Virus record (IMG/VR): IMGVR_UViG_3300037782_000051
Span: 1-48,345 of that record
Source: a virus
Lineage: Duplodnaviria; Caudoviricetes
Length of the DNA: 48,345 nt
Reading direction: 5' to 3' (one strand)
The notes under the pieces are model-generated. The model was not told where the DNA came from and searched no databases. It worked only from the letters and a program-made list of their open reading frames with translations. Shown here one piece after another: positions 5,912-47,218 of this stretch (its first letter is position 1; the number at the start of each line of letters is the position of its first letter). A program made the translations under genes and the position numbers.

Positions 5912-6087
5912 AAGACGAAAAATTTGAAATTCGCCATTTGCGCATGGAGATAAAACGCGAAACAGCCTGCGCTCAGCAAGCGGAGGATTGCGGCAAACAT
6001 GAGCTTGCTAAAGCCTATCGGCAGGGGCTGAAGGGTAAGAAAAAGAGGTTGAAGGAATTGGAGGTTAGACGGGGAGGTTGTGTGTAG
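5908..6087 (+). CDS. 59-aa basic hypothetical protein whose stop lies in the first attC-like half-site
   Basis: Manual translation MKDEKFEIRHLRMEIKRE...KELEVRRGGCV*. Confidence 0.6.
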   Translation: MKDEKFEIRHLRMEIKRETACAQQAEDCGKHELAKAYRQGLKGKKKRLKELEVRRGGCV

Positions 6088-6096
6088 CTGTAGTTA
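6073..6096 (+). repeat. Truncated attC-like site (right arm only)
   Basis: GGAGGTTGTGTGTAGCTGTAGTTA is 23/24 identical to 9469-9492. No left arm is present upstream. Confidence 0.8.
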
Positions 6097-6228
6097 TACC
6101 TAGCGAAACCAATAAATGTTCCGGCTGCTGGAGGATGCGGAAGCAGCTAGAGAAACCAATATCGGGCATCCACATTTATTCATCATCGCCTATTCCTTTT
6201 GGCATGGGGCGCTAAAATCTTATTTAAA

Positions 6229-6438
6229 ATGGAAACGACTTACATCATAATCAACCCAAAAACCAATTCTTACTTTGAGGGTTTTTTTGCTGGAAATACC
6301 AACCAGATTACATGGACAGATGATTATTCTGAAGCTGTACATTATTCCTCTGTAGAAGAAATAGAGAACGCAAACTTCTATGTAAAGGGAGATATTCATA
6401 AAGTTGAACATAAAATTAGCGCCCTAGCTAGGGTATAA
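6229..6438 (+). CDS. Cassette 1 cargo (cassette 6093-6439), hypothetical 69 aa
   Basis: ATG after TTTAAA; the stop TAA lies within the TAAC core. Confidence 0.75.
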   Translation: METTYIIINPKTNSYFEGFFAGNTNQITWTDDYSEAVHYSSVEEIENANFYVKGDIHKVEHKISALARV

Positions 6439-6495
6439 CGTACAAGTACTGGCGCTGTGCCGACTGTAAGGAGGTATAGGCGCTAGTACGTTGGT
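6437..6495 (+). repeat. attC-like hairpin 1 (AAC...GGT)
   Basis: GTACTGGCGC/GCGCTAGTAC stem with apical CCGACTGTAAGGAGG. Confidence 0.8.
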
Positions 6496-6625
6496 GTACG
6501 ACGGCTACCAATAGATAGTCGGCTGAGCGACAGTAGGAGCCAGCTAAAGAAACTCTACTCAGGCATCATCTTGTATCAATAGAATTTATTTCAAAGGGCA
6601 GTGCGCCCTTAAAACTATAATTACA

Positions 6626-6874
6626 ATGAATCCTTTTCAACCCTTTAATTACCCTAATCAAAACGACCAATTAAGAAAGAATCAACATCAACAACCCAGA
6701 ACTAAATTTAAGGACATTCAGGTAGGGGACGTCTTTAAACTAGAATGGTCTGGAGGATATACTTTATTTGAAAAAAAATCTAAATCCACGGCAATTGTAT
6801 TAGAATCAGAAATCAAATCTCCTGTTTTTGAGGTTGGAGATATTGAAAATTTCAATCCTAATTCACTTATTTAG
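6626..6874 (+). CDS. Cassette 2 cargo (cassette 6493-6893), hypothetical 82 aa
   Basis: ATG 133 nt after the GGT core; the TAG abuts the inner repeat GGCGCAC. Confidence 0.75.
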   Translation: MNPFQPFNYPNQNDQLRKNQHQQPRTKFKDIQVGDVFKLEWSGGYTLFEKKSKSTAIVLESEIKSPVFEVGDIENFNPNSLI

Positions 6875-6890
6875 GCGCACGCTGTCGTAC

Positions 6891-6954
6891 ACCGTACAGG
6901 GCTACACGCCGTGCTGCTGGGGACTCGGTTGGGGCATGGTGTGTAGCTGTAGTT
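6891..6954 (+). repeat. attC-like hairpin 2 (ACC...GTT)
   Basis: GCTACACGCCGTGC/GCATGGTGTGTAGC stem. Confidence 0.85.
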
Positions 6955-7083
6955 ATGCACCGGCTTAATTCTAATCATACGGCCCTGCGACAATAGGAGC
7001 TGGGCTTAAGAAATTATAATCGGGCAATATTGCCTTTCATTTCAAGGCTCATTCTTCGGGTGCGCCGCTTAAATCAAATTAAA

Positions 7084-7371
7084 ATGACAACATTAGAGCA
7101 AGTTAAAACAGTGCCTATCAATATTTTGCTTGAAAAAGTATGGCCCTGTGGTTTATGCTTAATGCGAGATTGTATGTGGATTGCTTTCTGGGAAAATGAA
7201 GATGAAGAAACGGCCTATACTCAAGATTCAGATTCTTTTGAAGATTTTATTTACAGGGTGATTGCAGATCAAATTGAAAACGGAGATGTTGACCATGAAG
7301 GTTTTAATCACATATCAATTGACTTTGCTATAGCATCAGTTGAGTACAATGAAGCGGCGGCTGGTGCATAA
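7084..7371 (+). CDS. Cassette 3 cargo (cassette 6952-7372), acidic hypothetical 95 aa
   Basis: ATG at 7084 after an A-rich stretch; the stop lies in the TAAC core. Confidence 0.75.
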   Translation: MTTLEQVKTVPINILLEKVWPCGLCLMRDCMWIAFWENEDEETAYTQDSDSFEDFIYRVIADQIENGDVDHEGFNHISIDFAIASVEYNEAAAGA

Positions 7372-7435
7372 CGTGCAGAGCTACCCGCCGTACAGCTTAG
7401 GCCGAGCGTTGGCGTATGGCGGGTAGCGTGTAGTT
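7370..7435 (+). repeat. attC-like hairpin 3 (AAC...GTT)
   Basis: GCTACCCGCCGTAC/GTATGGCGGGTAGC stem. Confidence 0.85.
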
Positions 7436-7567
7436 ATACCTAGCGAAACCAATAAATGTTCCGGCTGCTGGAGGATGCGGAAGCAGCTAGAGAAACCAAT
7501 ACCGGGCATCCATATTTATTCATCATTGCTTAATCCTTTTGGCAGGTGCGGCATAAATTAATCAGAA

Positions 7568-7876
7568 ATGAAATACCCTGAATCAATAATCAAAAAGCTA
7601 GTAATTGCATTTATTGTCATTCTTATATTCAATGCAATTATTTTTTACAGAATGGGGTATCACCAATCAAAGGTTGACATCGCCCACGAATACCCAATCT
7701 TCAATTTGAAAAATGAAGTCTTCAACGATGTTGAGTTTGAAGATGGAATGATATACTTTATGGGCGGTGTCAGCCATAATCACACAGTATACACCTATGA
7801 ATCTGATACATTAATTTTCTTATTCACATATCACCCAATGTCTGGTGTTTTTCTTGAAAAAGAATTGCCGCACTAG
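7568..7876 (+). CDS. Cassette 4 cargo (cassette 7433-7888), N-terminal membrane-anchored protein
   Basis: KKLVIAFIVILIFNAIIFY hydrophobic segment; leader nearly identical to cassette 1. Confidence 0.75.
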   Translation: MKYPESIIKKLVIAFIVILIFNAIIFYRMGYHQSKVDIAHEYPIFNLKNEVFNDVEFEDGMIYFMGGVSHNHTVYTYESDTLIFLFTYHPMSGVFLEKELPH

Positions 7877-7885
7877 CTAGGGTAT

Positions 7886-7942
7886 AACGGACGAGTACTG
7901 GCGCAGGCCTGAGGTACGAAGGCTTGGCGCTAGTATGTTGGT
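7886..7942 (+). repeat. attC-like hairpin 4 (AAC...GGT)
   Basis: GTACTGGCGC/GCGCTAGTAT stem with apical CCTGAGGTACGAAGG; same family as hairpin 1. Confidence 0.82.
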
Positions 7943-8072
7943 GTGTGCAGTTAAACCCTTAATCATAGGGTGAGCGACAGTAGGAGCGAACAAGAACAAA
8001 CCCACAACGGGTATCACAATAATTCTTTCACAGTCTAATCCTCCGGGAGCGGGCGCTTAAAACTTAATTACG

Positions 8073-8342
8073 ATGAAACAAGAATTGAATTTTATGGATG
8101 TTGATCTCGGTCACTTTGATACCGAATCGAAAACTTTTCACCCTAATATAGATAATGTAAAATCAATTGAAGTGATGGGGGAAAACAATTGCAACAATCC
8201 AGAAATTATGGGGTCTATTGAAATTGTATGTTACGATGAAAAATGGGATTGGCCAATTTTCATGTGGGTTAGAGAAGATAAGATAACACTATCAACAAGT
8301 GTATCGTATAGCAACCGCCGAAAAGTAATTTATCTTTCTTAG
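8073..8342 (+). CDS. Cassette 5 cargo (cassette 7940-8360), hypothetical 89 aa
   Basis: ATG 133 nt after the GGT core. Confidence 0.75.
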   Translation: MKQELNFMDVDLGHFDTESKTFHPNIDNVKSIEVMGENNCNNPEIMGSIEIVCYDEKWDWPIFMWVREDKITLSTSVSYSNRRKVIYLS

Positions 8343-8357
8343 CGACCGATTGCACAC

Positions 8358-8417
8358 ACCGGACGGGGCTACCCGGCGTATGGAGCGCAGCGTAATATGA
8401 TCGGGTAGCATAGTGTT
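8358..8417 (+). repeat. attC-like hairpin 5 (ACC...GTT)
   Basis: GCTACCCGG/TCGGGTAGC stem. Confidence 0.78.
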
Positions 8418-8538
8418 GGGTGCAGGCGTACAAATAATAGTGCGGCGAGTGACGATAGGAACGAGTGACAAGAAACCCTAAACTGGTATTTATTAATTCC
8501 TTTCTTTACTCTTAATCGGGGTAGAGCAGGGAGCGAAG

Positions 8539-8626
8539 AACGGTTGGGTGTATGGTGTGTAGCTGACACCACTAACTTTCGGCTAAAGAACTAATGTTTA
8601 ATCTGCTATACACTATATATTGTGTT
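8539..8626 (+). repeat. Nested longer attC-like hairpin of a different family inside cassette 6
   Basis: AAC...GTGTATGGTGTGTAGC / GCTATACACTATATAT...GTT; all non-Watson-Crick pairs in this stem are G-T. Confidence 0.72.
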
Positions 8627-8648
8627 AGCCACCGTAAATACTAAGATT

Positions 8649-8879
8649 ATGATTTTAGAAACAGGATTCAAACTACCACGAGATAAAGGCGTGATTCGAT
8701 TTGGTGATGTACTTAAAAGTAGTATGACACATGATGTAGTAGTAATGTTCCATCAAGGACAGAAGAAACCTATCGTAAAAGTGATAGATGAAGATATTTG
8801 GTTTGAACTTGAAGAGTTTCTTGACTCATGTGGTTCACGTCTTGAAATTAGCCACAACATTAATTATTATTGTGGCTAA
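8649..8879 (+). CDS. Nested cassette cargo (GTTAGCCAC 8624 ... GTGGCTAAT 8880) within cassette 6 (8415-8950); weakly YopX-like
   Basis: ATG at 8649. IRFGDVL...LEISHNI loosely recalls the YopX C-terminal pattern. Confidence 0.65.
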   Translation: MILETGFKLPRDKGVIRFGDVLKSSMTHDVVVMFHQGQKKPIVKVIDEDIWFELEEFLDSCGSRLEISHNINYYCG

Positions 8880-8921
8880 TACTTATCCATGTTCAACATT
8901 TCATTGAATATAGATATAGTT
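8878..8921 (+). repeat. Degenerate nested attC-like hairpin (AAT...GTT)
   Basis: TATCCATGTTCAA/TTGAATATAGATA imperfect stem. Confidence 0.55.
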
Positions 8922-8947
8922 CTTCCCTCCCTGCGGAGCTTGCACCC

Positions 8948-9003
8948 AACGTACAGGGCTACACGCAGGCGCGAGGCACGAGTGCTTGTGTGTAGCTGTA
9001 GTT
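8948..9003 (+). repeat. attC-like hairpin 6 (AAC...GTT)
   Basis: TACAGG-GCTACACGCAGGC/GCTTGTGTGTAGC-TGTA with apical GCGAGGCACGAGT. Confidence 0.85.
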
Positions 9004-9133
9004 ATGCACCGTTTTAACCAGCAGTAGACGAGCCGTAGTGTGCGAAGGCGGGTGACTAATTAATCGGGTAACAAACAATTATTATTTATTCATTTTTATC
9101 TGGCGGCTTAATCGTCAGCAAAACACAACAATC

Positions 9134-9409
9134 ATGCAAACATCAAAAAGAACTGAAATTCATGTAAACCAGCGAATGATTGAAATTCTATCTAAAGGCG
9201 ATTATATCCCATCGCTAGAGGAAGAATTTCAGATCAATTATACCACACGCGGGGTACTTCGCAATGATACCTTAAAGGTTGTAAAAATTGAAGATGAAAC
9301 ACACACAAGTGAACCAACTCAATTTCTACCTGAGATAGAAACCGTTGTAACAAAAATTCACTGTGAAGTTGTAAAGAACCATCATAAACAAAGATTTTCA
9401 TCATATTGA
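9134..9409 (+). CDS. Cassette 7 cargo (cassette 9001-9431), hypothetical 91 aa
   Basis: ATG 133 nt after the GTT core; bracketed by TGGCGGCT/AGCCGCCA. Confidence 0.75.
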   Translation: MQTSKRTEIHVNQRMIEILSKGDYIPSLEEEFQINYTTRGVLRNDTLKVVKIEDETHTSEPTQFLPEIETVVTKIHCEVVKNHHKQRFSSY

Positions 9410-9428
9410 TAGCCGCCAAATGGTGCAT

Positions 9429-9491
9429 AACGTACAGGGCTACACGCAGCCTGTTCAGCCCTCGCGTTGGAGGTTGCGTGTAGCTGTAGTT
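9429..9491 (+). repeat. attC-like hairpin 7 (AAC...GTT)
   Basis: GCTACACGCAGCCT/AGGTTGCGTGTAGC stem. Confidence 0.85.
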
Positions 9492-9616
9492 AGGTACTGC
9501 GAAACAACTAAATGGTCAAGGCGGCGATAGCAAGCCGGGTGACTATAACAACAGGCATCAAACCAGTATTCATCATTCATTTTCTTCGGGCGACTGCCAG
9601 CGTAAATAATAATCGA

Positions 9617-10252
9617 ATGCAAAACAAATTCTTAAATATTGATTGTATGGACGAGCGGGAAGGGCTGCCGTCTTATCCTGATAATTTCTTTGATCTTGCT
9701 ATTGTAGATCCACCTTATGGGTTAGATATAGGTAATTCTCCTAGAATTGTAACAGATAAGGGTATCAAGGGCAAGTCTTGGGATTCAATGATACCTGATA
9801 GAGAATACTTTGAACAGTTAAATCGGGTATCTAAAAATCAAATTATTTGGGGCTGGAATTATTTTGTCCCATTTTTATCTTCTTGTCAATGCTATATCGT
9901 TTGGTACAAGCATCAACCTGTCAAATCTTTTGCAGATTGTGAAAGTGCTTATACATCGTTCAAAAGACCCGCTGTTGTTTTTGACTTTAGATACTATGGG
10001 AATATTGAAGGCGGGACAAAAGCTAGTTTGAAAATTCATCCTACTCAAAAACCAATAAAGCTGTATCAAAGGACTTTAACGGAATTTGCCAAACCGGGCG
10101 ACCTTATTCTTGATACTCATGTTGGTTCTGCATCATCATTAATCGCTTTTGAAAGTATGGGATTCAATTACCATGCTTTTGAAATTGATGAAGATTATTA
10201 TAAGGCAGCCCTGGAGCGCATGCGGGCGGGCATTCAAACAGCAATTTTTTAG
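9617..10252 (+). CDS. Cassette 8 cargo (cassette 9489-10273): N6-adenine/N4-cytosine DNA methyltransferase, beta-class motif order
   Basis: Catalytic DPPY, then HPTQKP, then SAM-binding ILDTHVGSAS and FEIDEDYY. Confidence 0.9.
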   Translation: MQNKFLNIDCMDEREGLPSYPDNFFDLAIVDPPYGLDIGNSPRIVTDKGIKGKSWDSMIPDREYFEQLNRVSKNQIIWGWNYFVPFLSSCQCYIVWYKHQPVKSFADCESAYTSFKRPAVVFDFRYYGNIEGGTKASLKIHPTQKPIKLYQRTLTEFAKPGDLILDTHVGSASSLIAFESMGFNYHAFEIDEDYYKAALERMRAGIQTAIF

Positions 10253-10270
10253 CTGGCAGTAGTAGTACCT

Positions 10271-10335
10271 AACGGACAAAGCTACACGCTGCCACGCCCA
10301 GCCCTCGGTTCGCCGGTAGCGTGTAGCGTGATGGT
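10271..10335 (+). repeat. attC-like hairpin 8 (AAC...GGT)
   Basis: GCTACACGCTGCC/GGTAGCGTGTAGC stem. Confidence 0.85.
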
Positions 10336-10482
10336 GTGTGATGTGATATTCAAATAACTGAGCTGCGACGATAGGAGCGCGGCTGTATTAATACCCCCGA
10401 GCCTGTGGAGGCCGGGGGAGAATGAACTAAATTTTTTCATGGCCTAACCCTACTCGGGCAGGCAGGCGTAAAATAATTTTAA

Positions 10483-10671
10483 ATGAAAGATCAAAAGAAA
10501 AGTGTTGAAAATAAACCTAAAAGAAAACCTTGGAATTACGGGAAAAGAAAACCCATTGTAGATGAAATGGGGAATAAATGGTGTAATTGCATAGAACCAA
10601 AACTAACTTCTAATTCAGGTGTAGGTGGTCAAGCATATTGTTTAAAATGTCATTCAAATTGGTATCATTAG
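10483..10671 (+). CDS. Cassette 9 cargo (cassette 10333-10690), small basic Zn-ribbon-like protein
   Basis: CNC...CLKCH cysteine pairs. Confidence 0.65.
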   Translation: MKDQKKSVENKPKRKPWNYGKRKPIVDEMGNKWCNCIEPKLTSNSGVGGQAYCLKCHSNWYH

Positions 10672-10687
10672 CCTGCCCATATCACAC

Positions 10688-10743
10688 ACCGGACGGGGCT
10701 ACACGCAGGGCTGAGGTACGAAGCCTTGAGTGTAGCTGTAGTT
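10688..10743 (+). repeat. attC-like hairpin 9 (ACC...GTT)
   Basis: GCTACACGCAGGGC/GCCTTGAGTGTAGC stem with apical CTGAGGTACGAAG. Confidence 0.85.
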
Positions 10744-10891
10744 ACATGGCGTTTTAACCTATAATAGTCAAGCAGCGACAGTAGGAGCGCGGGTGACTTT
10801 TCTACTCAGCTACAAACCCTTTCCAATCCTGTCTATTCCGTGTGCGGCCCTAAACTAAATATACTTTGTGTATAAAATAATTGATATAAAA

Positions 10892-10924
10892 CTTGCGCGT
10901 GTGGTATACTTATTGTATATTGCA
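10892..10924 (+). promoter_or_regulatory. Promoter inside cassette 10 (CTTG-N20-TATATTGCA)
   Basis: Same spacing as 5311 and 32051; followed by an A-rich leader. Confidence 0.65.
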
Positions 10925-10953
10925 GCATCATTAACAACAAAACAATATAAATC

Positions 10954-11184
10954 ATGAAAAAGTACCTAGTAAATACCTTATTGAATATCATTCACGAGGT
11001 ATCTGAAATTGGAGGTGAAGTTGATCGCACAGATTTCATTCGTGCTGATGGAAGCAAAGGATGCGTTTTTGGTAAAGAATGGAAAACCATGCACGCAGAT
11101 AATGAGGAAGATATAAAAAATCACCTCCGAAAGCACAGAGAGTATTATTGCAGGATTAACGGATATAGCACTTTAGAACTTTAA
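10954..11184 (+). CDS. Cassette 10 (10741-11414) cargo gene 1, hypothetical 76 aa
   Basis: ATG after the promoter and A-rich leader. Confidence 0.75.
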   Translation: MKKYLVNTLLNIIHEVSEIGGEVDRTDFIRADGSKGCVFGKEWKTMHADNEEDIKNHLRKHREYYCRINGYSTLEL

Positions 11185-11227
11185 CCCAAGCCCCCGCGAT
11201 AACATCAACGGGGCTAAATCTTTTATT

Positions 11228-11413
11228 GTGGATAAAATCATTTCTATCTACCTCGAAAACCAAACCGAGAAAGCAAATCGGCTTGGTAAACACCGTCAAA
11301 CATTAGTGGCTTGGAAACGCAACCCTTCTCAGGCTAGCTTGCAATTGATCGAAGAAGACCTTAAAGCGCTTCTTCTTCTAATACAAGAATACAAGACCGC
11401 AAATGCCATGTAA
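11228..11413 (+). CDS. Cassette 10 cargo gene 2, HTH-like 61 aa
   Basis: QTEKANRLGKHRQTLVAWKRNP resembles an HTH; GTG start; the stop lies in the TAAC core. Confidence 0.6.
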   Translation: MDKIISIYLENQTEKANRLGKHRQTLVAWKRNPSQASLQLIEEDLKALLLLIQEYKTANAM

Positions 11414-11426
11414 CTACATAACACCC

Positions 11427-11468
11427 GCAACCCCGTATGTAAACGCTTGTAAACGACTACGGGGTTGC
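11427..11468. repeat. Perfect 11-bp inverted repeat closing the array
   Basis: GCAACCCCGTA...TACGGGGTTGC, 12 nt after the last AAC core. Confidence 0.7.
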
Positions 11469-12152: not shown

Positions 12153-12995
12153 ATGAAAACAGTAACATCAATATCAGGCGGAAAAACATCTGCTTATCTT
12201 GCTACTCATTACCCTACTGATTACAACGTTTTCTCTTTGGTTAGAATAGAGGACAAAAGTGCTGCGTTCCCTGATAAGAAAATTAGGCAAATAGTAGAGG
12301 ATAAAATCCAAAAGCAATTTATTGCTACAGCTGAAGATGATACTATCATTTACACAATTCTTGATCTTGAGCAGCATATCGGCAGAAAGATACATTGGGT
12401 ATCAGGCGACACCTTTGACAGCGTTATCGAACAAAAAGGCGGTTATCTTCCTAACAAGATGCAACGTTTTTGCACTTCAGAAATGAAGTTAAAGCCTATT
12501 TTTTATTGGTGGGCAGAAACAATAAGCGAACCAATAAAAATGCAAATTGGCTACCGGGCTAATGAGCAAAGAAGAGCAAACACTATGCTATCTAAGTGCA
12601 ATGAAGACGGATTGCTCGAATATAAAGCAACATTTGAAAAGCACTCAAATGGGAACAATAAATGGGAGCAAATACCATGGCAAAAACCATCATTCCCGCT
12701 TATTGATAACGCTGTTTTTCGTGACCAGATAGAAAACTATTGGACTGGTCAAACCGTCCGTTTTGCTGATTACAATAACTGTGTCGGCTGCTTTCATCGA
12801 AACCCCTTATTTCTTCGTAAGATGTGGGATAAACATCCAGCTAAGATGGATTGGTTTGAATCAAAAGAAACAGGGCCGAAAAACCCAAATTGGAGATCTG
12901 ATATATCTTATTCACAAATTAAGCAGCACCGCCCTCAATTTGAATTAGATTTTTCAGATTTTTCAGATTGCGATTCTGGATACTGCGGAATGTAA
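12153..12995 (+). CDS. PAPS-reductase-like (PP-loop) protein with Cys clusters
   Basis: SISGGKTS PP-loop, RFCTSEMK, IGYRANE, NCVGCF and terminal CDSGYCG. Confidence 0.8.
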   Translation: MKTVTSISGGKTSAYLATHYPTDYNVFSLVRIEDKSAAFPDKKIRQIVEDKIQKQFIATAEDDTIIYTILDLEQHIGRKIHWVSGDTFDSVIEQKGGYLPNKMQRFCTSEMKLKPIFYWWAETISEPIKMQIGYRANEQRRANTMLSKCNEDGLLEYKATFEKHSNGNNKWEQIPWQKPSFPLIDNAVFRDQIENYWTGQTVRFADYNNCVGCFHRNPLFLRKMWDKHPAKMDWFESKETGPKNPNWRSDISYSQIKQHRPQFELDFSDFSDCDSGYCGM

Positions 12996-14708: not shown

Positions 14709-16289
14709 TTAATTTTTCACTGCCTTGCGCTCGATAGTATTCTGCGCGAAAGTGACAGTATTGATTTGTGAAAATGTCCTCTTTATGTTCGACACTGTCT
14801 TGCGCCGTGGTGCGTCTAGCTGCGAACGCTGCCCGGCAACTTCAGTGATTATTGTCTCAATCTGTACATCGTACCCTGCACGCTTCATCAGCATCTCATA
14901 AAAGTGCCGCACCCAAAACGTCATATCGAGCTTGTCGTCTGTAGCATTTAGCACAAAAGCCCGGTTGGTGAAGAACTCAGCAGTAGCAAGTGTAATCGCC
15001 TCAACAGCATCTTCAGCATACAGCTTGCTATCATAGCGCACTGTTAGCCTAACTTCATCGGTATAAAACTTTCCTGAGCCAAACGGCTTCCACATCACAG
15101 GATAGTTGTCTGATAACTTGACAATGATAGTGCGCTTGTCCTTTTCCGGCTGATCTGGTTCGTCCGGTTCATCTGGTTCGTCATCATTCGGCGTATCGGG
15201 GTTGCCGTTATGTTCATCGCTGTAGCTTTCCGGGTTGACGTCCTTAAGCGCTGTCAGGATATTAACGCCATATCCATACTTTTCATCCCATCCTTGCGGG
15301 CCTAAGCCCACCGCATTAGCACGCAGGCAGTTGCTCACCTGCTTAGCTGTAGCGTTCGATGTAGCCCCTAGAATAGCAGCTATTGCTGCCTGTGTAGGCG
15401 TTGCCATCGAAGTGCCTGACAGTTCAGCGTAACCACCGTTAAGCCATGCGCCGTACACCCGGACGCCTGCCCCTGACATATAGAGCTGTGGCCCGTAGTT
15501 GCTAAAGCCTGCAATAGTGCCTGAGTTGTCAATTGCTCCGATAGCGTGCGCACTTGTCCCGTTTGCCGGAGTGCCGATGAAGTTCTGCCCGTTGTTACCA
15601 GCAGCTGCAAGAACAAGCACGCCAGCATCTTCAGCTTTCTCAATAGCGCTGTTGAATTGCTCATTAACGCTTTGGCTGCCTAGCGAAAAATTAAAGATGA
15701 CAAACCAACCATCATCAATCAGCTTTTTTGCTTCTGCTGTGCCTGTCTCGATGCCTGTAACGATTTGGCTTGTATAGCCATAGCCCTCCTTTCGCAAGAC
15801 TTTGTAGAAGATCAGCTTCAGGTTATCGCCTAAGATAGATGCAGGCCCAAGCTTGTAGTTAAACTCATGCTTGCCTGCAATGCAGGTGCCTACGTGTATG
15901 CCATGCCCATGCTTTGCGCTTGCAGGCTCTCCTGTAAATATTTTATCTTTCTCAGGCCACGCGAAATCCTCAAGGCTCTTATGCCCTGCTTCGCCTTCAG
16001 TATCGAAGACGAACACCGCCACCTTGCGCTTGATACGCTCCTTAATCCACGCCTCGTTCTGAGCCACGCGGTAGTAATCGTACGCCCAATTGCCGTTCGC
16101 GTCAGCGGTGGCAAGGCTTGGTATCATCGGTATCTGCTCGATCGGGTCAAGGAAGACCTTTCCCGGCCCTTGATTCTCCTGAATGAAGCGCTCAATACGC
16201 TTGTACTCATTTGAATACTCATCAGGCACAGGCTGTGCGAAGAGCGTAAAAGTAACTGCTGTTAGTAGCAGTATCAGTAGATTCTTCAT
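14709..16289 (-). CDS. Subtilisin-like S8 serine protease with signal peptide
   Basis: VFVFDT, HGHGIHVG, AAAGN and GTSMATP catalytic motifs; N-terminal MKNLLILLLTAVTFTLFA|Q. Confidence 0.9.
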   Translation of the reverse strand: MKNLLILLLTAVTFTLFAQPVPDEYSNEYKRIERFIQENQGPGKVFLDPIEQIPMIPSLATADANGNWAYDYYRVAQNEAWIKERIKRKVAVFVFDTEGEAGHKSLEDFAWPEKDKIFTGEPASAKHGHGIHVGTCIAGKHEFNYKLGPASILGDNLKLIFYKVLRKEGYGYTSQIVTGIETGTAEAKKLIDDGWFVIFNFSLGSQSVNEQFNSAIEKAEDAGVLVLAAAGNNGQNFIGTPANGTSAHAIGAIDNSGTIAGFSNYGPQLYMSGAGVRVYGAWLNGGYAELSGTSMATPTQAAIAAILGATSNATAKQVSNCLRANAVGLGPQGWDEKYGYGVNILTALKDVNPESYSDEHNGNPDTPNDDEPDEPDEPDQPEKDKRTIIVKLSDNYPVMWKPFGSGKFYTDEVRLTVRYDSKLYAEDAVEAITLATAEFFTNRAFVLNATDDKLDMTFWVRHFYEMLMKRAGYDVQIETIITEVAGQRSQLDAPRRKTVSNIKRTFSQINTVTFAQNTIERKAVKN

Positions 16290-45418: not shown

Positions 45419-45573
45419 GAGCGTTGTATCATCGTTATGAATGCTGCTAAGCAACCTGCAAGGCCCGCGAAGCCGTACAGCGAAGGATAGCCAAAACGTG
45501 CTGCTCCTACTGCACAAGCGAACGCAAGCCCTGCAAATAGGTAAGTGAATGTAGTTAAGATTTTGTTACCCAT
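45415..45573 (-). CDS. 52-aa two-TM protein (MGNKILTTFTYLFAGLAF...)
   Basis: Manual translation; overlaps both neighbours. Confidence 0.55.
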   Translation of the reverse strand: MGNKILTTFTYLFAGLAFACAVGAARFGYPSLYGFAGLAGCLAAFITMIQRS

Positions 45574-47218
45574 TTTGGATTGCTTTTTTCAGTTCATTCA
45601 GCTTTTCAAGCCGCTTGGTTTTGTTGCTGTCATCCGGCAAAACCTGCTTTGCGACATCAAGCAGCTCAAGTGCAATTTCATCATCCCCTGCTGCAAAGGC
45701 TTGCCCTGCCCTACTTAGGTAAGACCTGAACGCTGCACCTGATTGCTTGCGTTTCGGTTGCGTTTCGCCTGTTTCGCTATCTGTTGCGTTTGTTGCGCCT
45801 TCTGTTGCGCCTGTTGCACTATCATCATTCTGAGGGGAAGCAGAGTAGGTGCTTGCCTGATAGGTGTCAACACTGCTCATTGTACTTGCTGAGCTACTGT
45901 ACTGCTGCCTTGCTTGCTGTGCTTCTTGCCTCATTCTGATTTGTGCCGCTTCATTTTCTTGTTGCGCCCGCTGTTGCGCCTGTTGCGCCTGTTGCGCCCT
46001 TTGTTGCGCTTTTTGCATTGCTGTCTGATGCGCGACTAAACCTACCTGAGCATTGACAGTAGGGTGGGATGCAACAAGGTATTCAGCAATAGCAGCATTG
46101 TAAGCGCTTGAGGATTTTCCGACAGACTTCGCAACTCTTACCATTCGCTTGCTGCCTTCTTCTTTGAAGTACGCGGGCACCTGTGCAACCATCGTTACAA
46201 AGTAAGTGTAGATACTGCCTACCATATCGCCGAACACATCTGTAATACCTGGCTTGTCAGGGAAGAACGTCTCCATTGTATCATCGCTGTGGACGATGTG
46301 AAAAGCGACAAGCCAAGAGCAGAAGAAGCCGCCAACAACCAAGATGAAGTCGAGTAAGTAGTAGGTCCAGCGCTCGGCAGTGTAGAGCGTGTTTTCTGCC
46401 CATATTTGCGTATCTAGTTCCTTTTTGATATGCTGCCATTTCGGGTTGTTCCGCTCCTGATATAGCTTTTCCTGCATTGCAGCAAGGATTTTTGCCTTGC
46501 TATCTTTTCCAGCTTTAATAACTGCTTTTGCTTCCTTTGCTGCTGCTGCTTCTATGTCATAAGCTTTTTTCTCTGCCGCCTTAATCTCAAGTGAATACTC
46601 TGCTCTAATCCAGTCTTTGTTAGCGTAATCCCGCTGTTCTGCGGGACTACCTTGCTTAATAGCAGTTTCTACCGTTCTGCGTGCGAGCTGCTCAGCGTCT
46701 GCTTTTATTTGCGCGGCTTCTCGTTCTGAGCGCTCAATCGCTTTGTCTGCCTCTGCCTTATATGTAGATTCAATTCGTGCGAGCGCCTGCGTTTTGTCTT
46801 CCTCGAATGACTGTATCTTTTCGAGCGCATCTGATTCTGCCTGCTTGCCTACAACAGTACTCTCGCCAGTCAGGTAAGTAGCACCACCAGAGAAGAAAAA
46901 CCGGCCTGCCATAAGGGCAAACAGTATCAGCGTTGCAAAACCGCCTTTTTTGTAGATCTTCCAAAAGCCGCCCTGTTCTATTGCCTGTGCCAATGCAGCA
47001 ACAGAATTTTCGTACAGCGCATTATCAATGAGGTAGGTAATTACAAGCGCTGCGCCTACGACAAGCACAGACTCCCAAACAGGCGGCAGCATAATGCTGC
47101 CGCCTAATGCGCTTTCGCATACCCGGTAGGCCATCCATGCCGTTGTTACCATTAAGCCAAAGAACAAGCCTTTAGCGAGAGTGTGGATTTTGAATATGAT
47201 TTTTGCTATATATCCCAT
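45566..47218 (-). CDS. Multi-pass membrane protein with long coiled coils (550 aa)
   Basis: Three N-terminal hydrophobic segments, an A/E/K coiled coil, a further TM segment, then Q/A repeats and an S/T linker. Confidence 0.75.
   Translation of the reverse strand: MGYIAKIIFKIHTLAKGLFFGLMVTTAWMAYRVCESALGGSIMLPPVWESVLVVGAALVITYLIDNALYENSVAALAQAIEQGGFWKIYKKGGFATLILFALMAGRFFFSGGATYLTGESTVVGKQAESDALEKIQSFEEDKTQALARIESTYKAEADKAIERSEREAAQIKADAEQLARRTVETAIKQGSPAEQRDYANKDWIRAEYSLEIKAAEKKAYDIEAAAAKEAKAVIKAGKDSKAKILAAMQEKLYQERNNPKWQHIKKELDTQIWAENTLYTAERWTYYLLDFILVVGGFFCSWLVAFHIVHSDDTMETFFPDKPGITDVFGDMVGSIYTYFVTMVAQVPAYFKEEGSKRMVRVAKSVGKSSSAYNAAIAEYLVASHPTVNAQVGLVAHQTAMQKAQQRAQQAQQAQQRAQQENEAAQIRMRQEAQQARQQYSSSASTMSSVDTYQASTYSASPQNDDSATGATEGATNATDSETGETQPKRKQSGAAFRSYLSRAGQAFAAGDDEIALELLDVAKQVLPDDSNKTKRLEKLNELKKAIQNG

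Follow-up and report, generated by a model that had tools for sequence, protein, structure and literature searches.

We analysed a 48,345-nt stretch of viral DNA (IMG/VR record IMGVR_UViG_3300037782_000051; hereafter, the window), a complete phage of about 48 kb with a terminal direct repeat and terminase, portal, tail, DnaB and amidase genes. It carries an integron-like array of ten cassettes (c1 to c10). A reading made from the sequence alone (the sequence-only reading) had pointed to an inner inverted repeat that clamps each cargo open reading frame (ORF) of this array. Our results showed that the inner repeat forms the border, on the side of the gene, of a DNA frame, or shell, which related phages reuse around unrelated genes, and that the array is a real, apparently undescribed form of integron-type cassette. 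We lean towards the view that the frame folds as single-stranded DNA and is moved by an integron-like recombinase of the host, as a reusable cargo shell.

The ten units span 6093-11414, with nine hairpins between them. The order of parts is att hairpin, terminal arm, a leader of about 90 nt, inner left arm, cargo, inner right arm, and terminal arm. Terminal arms measure 12-14 nt and start with GTTA, GTTG, or GGTG; the right copy ends in TAAC, CAAC, or CACC, and units end and join directly after AAC/ACC. The inner left arm usually ends in GC, followed by 0-2 bulged bases and TAAA, and 0-3 nt separate the inner right arm from the terminal arm; the TAAA and this spacing agree with the sequence-only reading. 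The start codon lies 128-136 nt into the unit in 7 of 9 cassettes, and leader length is nearly fixed. The features of the array are as follows.

6064..11414, + strand: integron-like array of ten cassettes, between an ORF of 59 residues and the endolysin (amidase) gene
6064..6092, + strand: deleted remnant of the first att hairpin; the left end is also broken in relatives
6093..6439, + strand: c1 (shell family A), terminal arms at both ends, leader hairpin tip at 6130-6141
6207-6215 and 6416-6424, + strand: inner arms of c1; ORF 6229-6438 reads through the right arm
6493..6893, + strand: c2, inner arms 6601-6607 and 6874-6880, ORF 6626-6874
6952..7372, + strand: c3, inner arms 7063-7070 and 7352-7359, ORF 7084-7371
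7433..7888, + strand: c4 (family A), inner arms 7546-7553 and 7866-7873, ORF 7568-7876
7940..8360, + strand: c5, imperfect inner arms 8050-8057 and 8341-8348 (one G-A mismatch), ORF 8073-8342
8415..8950, + strand: c6 (family B), with the longest inner stem, 8526-8541 with 8919-8934
8622-8632 and 8872-8882, + strand: arms of a simple cassette nested in c6, ORF 8649-8879
about 8881-8918: decayed host-oriented att-like hairpin in c6
9001..9431, + strand: c7, inner arms 9101-9108 and 9411-9418, ORF 9134-9409
9489..10273, + strand: c8, inner arms 9593-9601 and 10252-10260
9617-10252, + strand: ORF of the c8 cargo, a DNA methyltransferase (PF01555)
10333..10690, + strand: c9, inner arms 10461-10467 (at 10461 the left arm is the second of two overlapping copies) and 10671-10677, ORF 10483-10671
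10741..11414, + strand: c10, weak inner arms 10843-10849 and 11395-11401; the cassette ends at 11414
within c10, + strand: cargo of a promoter-like region, ORF 10954-11184, hairpin 11189-11215, and ORF 11228-11413
6440-6492, 6894-6951, 7373-7432, 7889-7939, and 8361-8414, + strand: att hairpins 1-5
8951-9000, 9432-9488, 10274-10332, and 10691-10740, + strand: att hairpins 6-9

The seven pairs of inner arms listed by the sequence-only reading (c1-c4 and c7-c9) are all exact reverse complements where it placed them. Equally frequent matches in shuffled or cross-cassette pairings had been named beforehand as grounds for rejecting the repeat, and this comparison did not refute it. In c1-c9, own and foreign pairings were compared in equal windows by duplex energy and Watson-Crick runs. 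The mean duplex energy was −19.4 kcal/mol for own pairings versus −11.0 kcal/mol (standard deviation 3.0) for cross pairings; by energy, the true pairing was the best of 362,880 permutations, and its total Watson-Crick run was reached by 2 of the 362,880. Runs of at least 7 occurred in 8/9 own versus 5/72 cross pairings. A wider set held 27 full cassettes, 10 from the window and 17 from relatives, the latter located through the flanking ORF and DNA patterns, with one duplicate dropped. None of 100,000 permutations matched its true pairing, and 23 of the 27 had a perfect run of at least 6 bp with the left arm at +95 to +130. Because the cassettes are related, these p-values are optimistic; the own pairing beat every other-family pairing in only 16/27 (DNA parameters) or 11/27 (RNA parameters).

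The clamp is thus real, and c6, which the sequence-only reading omitted, has the strongest stem (15 of 16 pairs), but not every cargo ORF is well clamped. Of the two pairings described as imperfect versions, the one in c5 is no better than shuffles and the one in c10 is a 5-bp run plus one mismatch. The right arm was said to overlap the TAG stop often, but the stop is not always placed in this way: of 32 cassettes, 13 have it at the arm edge, in 11 the ORF continues into the shell, and in 8 it ends upstream (1 of the 8 being a miscalled ORF). In 24/32 cassettes, the ORF thus reaches the arm edge or goes beyond it into the shell. In one shell family (L123:10489-11201, L121:205-1065), both inner arms carry the same hexamer, and such arms could pair via two adjacent G-A mismatches.

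Four family-A shells share 87-95% leader identity, and their cargo has no mutual protein similarity; nor has the cargo of the four family-B shells. Contigs from other studies lose their similarity to the window at the inner arms 7069/7352, between which they have 216 different letters. Further stops lie at the inner arms 7077/7353, 7544/7869, 8544/8914, and 10472/10670, the filler sequence being known for 7069/7352 only. A PAPS-reductase-like gene lies free in the window, outside the array (12153..12995, + strand), and a close homologue is shelled in L123; the shared part is the coding sequence only. The c3 protein diverges from a 74% homologue at the right arm, where the shell begins, and its last seven residues, which differ from those of the homologue, coincide with the shell end. 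The sequence-only reading had offered gene capture or translation control as the role of the repeat: the change of cargo at the stem edge fits capture or exchange, while translation control is little supported. It had missed the reuse of shells with unrelated genes, the inversion of the genes relative to the att sites, and the non-canonical Bacteroidota type of site.

Inner stems also change within a given frame. The same terminal arms enclose a different, still-paired inner stem in c1/c4, c9/L149a, c5/L123c, and c3/c7. The c4 leader is 95% like that of c1, with an inner stem that differs yet is fully paired, and c9 has its shell in common with a different phage (L149), the source phages of c9 and L149a having little else in common. 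Cargo might instead be shuffled by homologous or microhomology recombination of co-infecting phages at conserved shell boxes, stems staying matched since mismatched units cannot be excised and reinserted. Shells are indeed mosaics of terminal-arm, hairpin, and mid-leader segments, two hybrids have mismatched terminal arms (L123b, L164c), and one contig keeps the c3-c4 shell order with other cargo. Swapping an inner arm beside the same terminal arm, however, needs a crossover within 0-3 nt (c1/c4, c9/L149a, c5/L123c), and such recombination moves existing cassettes, leaving the gain of a shell by a free gene unexplained. We regard it as very unlikely to be the explanation.

Family B bears on another alternative. 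Its inner arms have AAC at their end and GTT at their start, and they enclose nested simple cassettes and a decayed host-oriented att-like hairpin, so that family B looks like a host-type cassette inserted into the loop of the stem. The inner stem could accordingly be a functionless scar, either old att-like arms left after cargo insertion or a repeat copied by fold-back. It evolves much faster than the leader (three pairs changed between c1 and c4 at 95% leader identity) and is decayed or lost in c5, c10, L122a, L123d, and L149b, as a scar would be. Yet the stem stands at one position in 23/27 cassettes, the non-B cores have neither AAC/GTT ends nor hairpin remnants, and the core mismatches are mostly G-A, as expected under selection for one-strand stacking. 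In 120 core cells there were five G-A, one A-C, and no G-T mismatches; the registers were chosen for pairing, which inflates the 113/120 figure, and it was not used as a test. Cassettes truncated at the 5' end were too few to give a trend in stem decay. A scar seems to us distinctly unlikely.

Covariation supported three helices, the terminal stem, one leader hairpin, and the inner stem; the covariation of the inner stem is in line with the sequence-only reading. Among the leaders themselves (28, about 20 effective), only the terminal stem and one leader hairpin were picked out; the pair under the four-base loop of this hairpin is formed in 28/28 leaders by four pair types. Position 11 of the terminal stem is G-T in 26/27 cassettes, with neighbouring pairs varying freely. 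The base of the right arm can pair with a conserved GGC that precedes the inner arm, so the two stems, terminal and inner, could be viewed as a single long one from which the leader branches off. A multi-way junction looping out the ORF had been proposed. The terminal and inner stems can close on the gene, but a many-branched junction goes beyond the three helices that covary.

Other leader structures fared poorly. RNAalifold gave no consensus for the ten leaders, extra hairpins and a pseudoknot seen by eye showed no covariation, and the c8 hairpin plus leader folded no better than shuffles (z −0.96). The leader is only loosely like attI, and the leader model gave no match at host attI loci. 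At the gathering score, Rfam gave nothing for the window, L123, L149, or L183, and there were only two chance hits (E 0.5-10); this result and the single covarying leader hairpin also argue against a group I or II intron, or another Rfam RNA, with an ORF in its loop. The sequence TANNTTTG, which we take to be the Bacteroidota −7 box, was absent from the + strand of every leader, and no sigma-70 site recurred at one leader position; a promoter specific to the phage may still be present.

The stems may act in mRNA, where pairing ahead of the start codon and around the stop would set translation, stability, or processing, and where the leader hairpin would be bound by a regulator or would promote read-through at the att hairpins. 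The strand that folds is also the one transcribed. Predicted inner-stem probability, the folding check suggested along with the repeat, was at least 0.9 in 6/10 window cassettes with DNA parameters and at least 0.78 in 7/10 with RNA parameters, being low in c2, c5, and c10. The near-fixed leader length is also in keeping with a role in mRNA, as is a comparison with three simple cassettes (two host, one other phage) that have terminal stems of 9-14 bp and start codons at +24 to +40. In this small control, both the leader and a GC-rich inner stem were absent. Since the gene strand serves as mRNA and is also the strand likely to recombine, neither wobble bias nor strand asymmetry can separate DNA from RNA. 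Start codons of single-gene cassettes, however, lie 11-25 nt past the inner arm, and the stem is kept around two-gene cargo and around cargo with an internal promoter-like region, which lies about 100 nt further in (L123a, 8 bp; L158b, 7 bp). Moreover, the tip of the leader hairpin corresponds to tips of att sites that are antisense in hosts, no Rfam family or further covarying helix appeared, and the change of cargo at the arm edges is left unexplained. Among the matches listed there was no RNA holder. The tip motif shared with three host att sites and the indifference of the stem to gene number and internal promoters point to DNA, and we consider a role in mRNA unlikely.

In the att hairpins, the left core is followed by 6-7 unpaired nt and the right core preceded by 3-5, and the inner stem is unbroken. 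All nine window sites have 8-14 unbroken pairs after the spacer; their extra unpaired bases lie in the spacer beside the core, and none of the nine has the extrahelical L-box base of integron attC sites. The gene strand is the more stable one in 27/27 att hairpins (37 G-T versus 6 A-C) and has the same bias in the terminal stem (22 G-T versus 2 A-C). Among seven host-family att sites, where gene direction was read directly for L183 and L175, the opposite strand is more stable in 6/7, and the phage geometry appears on the strand opposite to the host-type pattern. The phage hairpins thus match host-family sites on the opposite strand, that is, the genes are inverted and the sense strand is the folding strand. 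In an unrelated phage (L125:4990-8500), which has simple cassettes with neither leader nor inner stem, the att hairpins likewise run opposite to the genes; inversion may be common in such phages.

The joint can be placed as well. Cores are complementary within 25/27 cassettes versus at 13/27 junctions (one row was corrected by hand). The core is ACC/GGT instead of AAC/GTT in 3/10 window cassettes, and a G follows it in 9/9 window sites. Arrays end at AAC in 9/9 records that keep the site, and six different last cassettes abut the constant phage side directly after AAC. Of 8 near-identical hairpin pairs, 6 share the downstream unit and 1 the upstream unit. Core pairing within cassettes, AAC ends, and sharing of the downstream unit together place the joint on the gene strand, at AA|C or immediately behind it, where the cut would also fall. 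The tip of the leader hairpin has the same motif as the tips of three host att sites on their folding strand. Short loops flanked by G-A end 11/27 att hairpins; such loops are presumably stable in DNA, and our literature search found no paper on the DNA stability of GNA loops or tandem G-A pairs.

The host is likely of Saprospiraceae type, and the second phage, the source of L149a, sits in a Phaeodactylibacter bin. In this genus, 5 of 11 genomes encode a tyrosine recombinase of about 491 residues, which matches the IntI model outside positions 181-238. Its score is below the IntI cut-off, the IntI insertion at these model positions is absent, and its phage relatives are only distant. In 5/5 cases the recombinase is followed by a constant site and then by variable DNA after G|TT. 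In L183:874-3210 and L173-L176, it is co-oriented with a hairpin-containing attI-like site and variable cassettes. A canonical IntI above the cut-off (L172, G001:C485) occurs in the same bin on a 3-kb contig with no evident array; it may be misbinned. The phage window itself had no match to a tyrosine recombinase (PF00589; 58 ORFs scanned, and 18 in a further scan), and neither a neighbouring IntI with the I2 insertion nor an attI was found for the phage array. No recombinase candidate was common to the window phage and the second phage, the second contig being compared minus its last 342 nt. According to the available text of Escudero et al. (PMC7790495), the I2 helix is what IntI uses on single-stranded sites, and bulged bases are tied to it. 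With the polarity of the host sites and the integron cut strand given by Bouvier et al. (2009; PMC2727003), the phage genes occupy the strand expected to recombine in a host.

The mechanism that we lean towards would run as follows. In a single-stranded unit, above all an excised circle, the terminal and inner stems would stack into a discontinuous duplex of about 25 bp, extending the att site and leaving the gene as a loop. New genes would enter, or modules of gene plus inner stem would be exchanged, at the stem ends. The host tyrosine recombinase, which has no IntI patch, would cut AA|C on the sense strand and insert units at a landing site in the phage, for which we have a candidate:

11412..11468, + strand: constant phage side of the array, starting directly after AAC; candidate landing site
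11427-11437 with 11458-11468, + strand: hairpin of the constant side that precedes the amidase gene, conserved and showing a compensatory change in L157; candidate landing site or regulator

In the portion of Loot et al. (PMC5371416) that we drew on, cassette length lowers excision when sites must fold together; by analogy, and as speculation, the clamp might offset this effect. More tentatively, and with considerable doubt, the shells may be dedicated gene-capture vectors, prebuilt carriers of folded single-stranded DNA loaded at the inner stem. Free genes, and in family B ordinary host cassettes, would then become inverted cassettes that the phage can express, and these would serve the host integrase that lacks the IntI insertion.

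Several points weigh against folding as single-stranded DNA and movement by a host enzyme. The sense strand doubles as mRNA, and the inner stem folds equally well under RNA and DNA parameters. Folding in vivo is so far a prediction, and within the array the models favour the terminal stem over the R-box pairing on which excision would depend. A 6-bp inner stem in the usual position is missing from 4 of the 27 full cassettes (c5, c10, L123d, L149b). Taken overall, hairpins are only weakly linked to the unit downstream (Mantel r 0.18 versus 0.14 upstream). In 61 host-family genomes, the tip motif gave 43 matches versus 42 for a reversed control, that is, no enrichment; 41 of the 43 have self-complementary ends, and 12 of the 14 loci read are not att sites. 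The host assignment rests on a single bin, and the host recombinase, whose role is putative, is without the I2 helix. Finally, we saw neither an empty shell nor an excised circle nor any intermediate of capture.

Outside the cassettes, every relative (L121, L157, L160, L162, L164) has a broken left end of the array, often with short duplications of the hairpin start. In L165, which has no array, the same ORF on the 59-residue side ends with AAC near the place corresponding to 6064-6092 of the window. Modules of promoter, ORF, and hairpin with swapped ORFs occur both inside shells and free (window 10870-11215; L122:5680-6010; L123, L158, L159, L164), and cargo that by eye resembles DNA-modification proteins of acetyltransferase type was noted at L123:11797-12256 and L121:1774-2304. 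Elsewhere in the window, there is a gene for a subtilase-family protease near the holin (14709-16289, − strand) and one for a 550-residue protein with glutamine-rich repeats and no family match (45566-47218, − strand). No cultured-phage match was found.

The search for further copies returned little. Among family genomes, which are samples and often incomplete, the leader model matched the phage contig only (150 genomes) and the phage-polarity att pattern was present in 1 of 401, namely the same phage contig. The host-polarity pattern was not enriched over the control, though several matches are clear hairpins. The viral pattern scans returned mostly chance matches, with one true array in 104 loci, two phages in 14 loci, one known locus in 11 loci, and nothing new in two more scans; a genome scan gave one true locus in 17. 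We found no description of the shell in the literature covered, which leaves out most subscription journals.

The first acquisition of genes by integron-type cassettes is, to our knowledge, still unsettled. The parts seen of two papers mention cassette genesis in passing only (PMC8352920, PMC8946536). If the shells are capture vectors, they offer a visible, testable route of cassette formation, and a folded single-stranded DNA carrier would give a handle on gene pick-up by integron-type cassettes. One frame around many unrelated genes, sharp boundaries, and a gene found both free and framed provide defined assay substrates. A phage with no recombinase of its own may collect DNA-modification and accessory genes via a host system that standard integron tools may miss.

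Other mobile systems resemble the array in part. The PeSL cassettes of T4-type phages are repeated non-coding units between small swappable genes, with a promoter in every unit; here, the leaders have no promoter consensus, and the units have att hairpins, paired ends, and a defined joint. Single-strand transposons of the IS200/IS605 type carry an HUH transposase gene in or near the element. No HUH transposase was found among the 58 window ORFs, which were scanned with Pfam and PHROGs, although an enzyme might act in trans.

CALINs, clusters of two or more attC sites without an integrase, occur in virulent phages including Polaribacter phage P12002L, as the main-text parts of Qi et al. (2023; PMC9892861) report. 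Like this array, they are borne by phages with a Bacteroidota host, lack an integrase of their own, and include methyltransferase cargo. The same parts of that account contain no inner stem, leader, shell reuse, or uniform gene inversion, and CALIN sites are called by canonical attC models (IntegronFinder/HattCI), whereas the nine full hairpin sites here came from our own scans.

In integrons, according to the available part of Bouvier et al. (2009; PMC2727003), attC is cut between C and A of the bottom strand, a G follows AAC in most sites, and bulged bases serve as landmarks. The phage array works like an integron cassette array: it shares with attC the hairpin sites between genes, one favoured strand, a probable crossover in AA|C, and the G after AAC, and its complementary cassette ends are 12-14 nt long versus 9-11 nt in that account. 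It differs in having no bulged base in the hairpin stem, no IntI nearby, a longer spacer on the cut side, and the ACC/GGT core variant; its genes lie on the folding strand, and it adds a leader of about 90 nt and a second stem. In the Phaeodactylibacter platform (L173-L176, L183), the gene lies opposite the folding strand, the start codon is 24-29 nt from the core, and the two cassettes examined have no GC-rich inner stem. With the phage, this platform shares the att geometry, the stem-start motif on the folding strand, and terminal stems of 9-14 bp.

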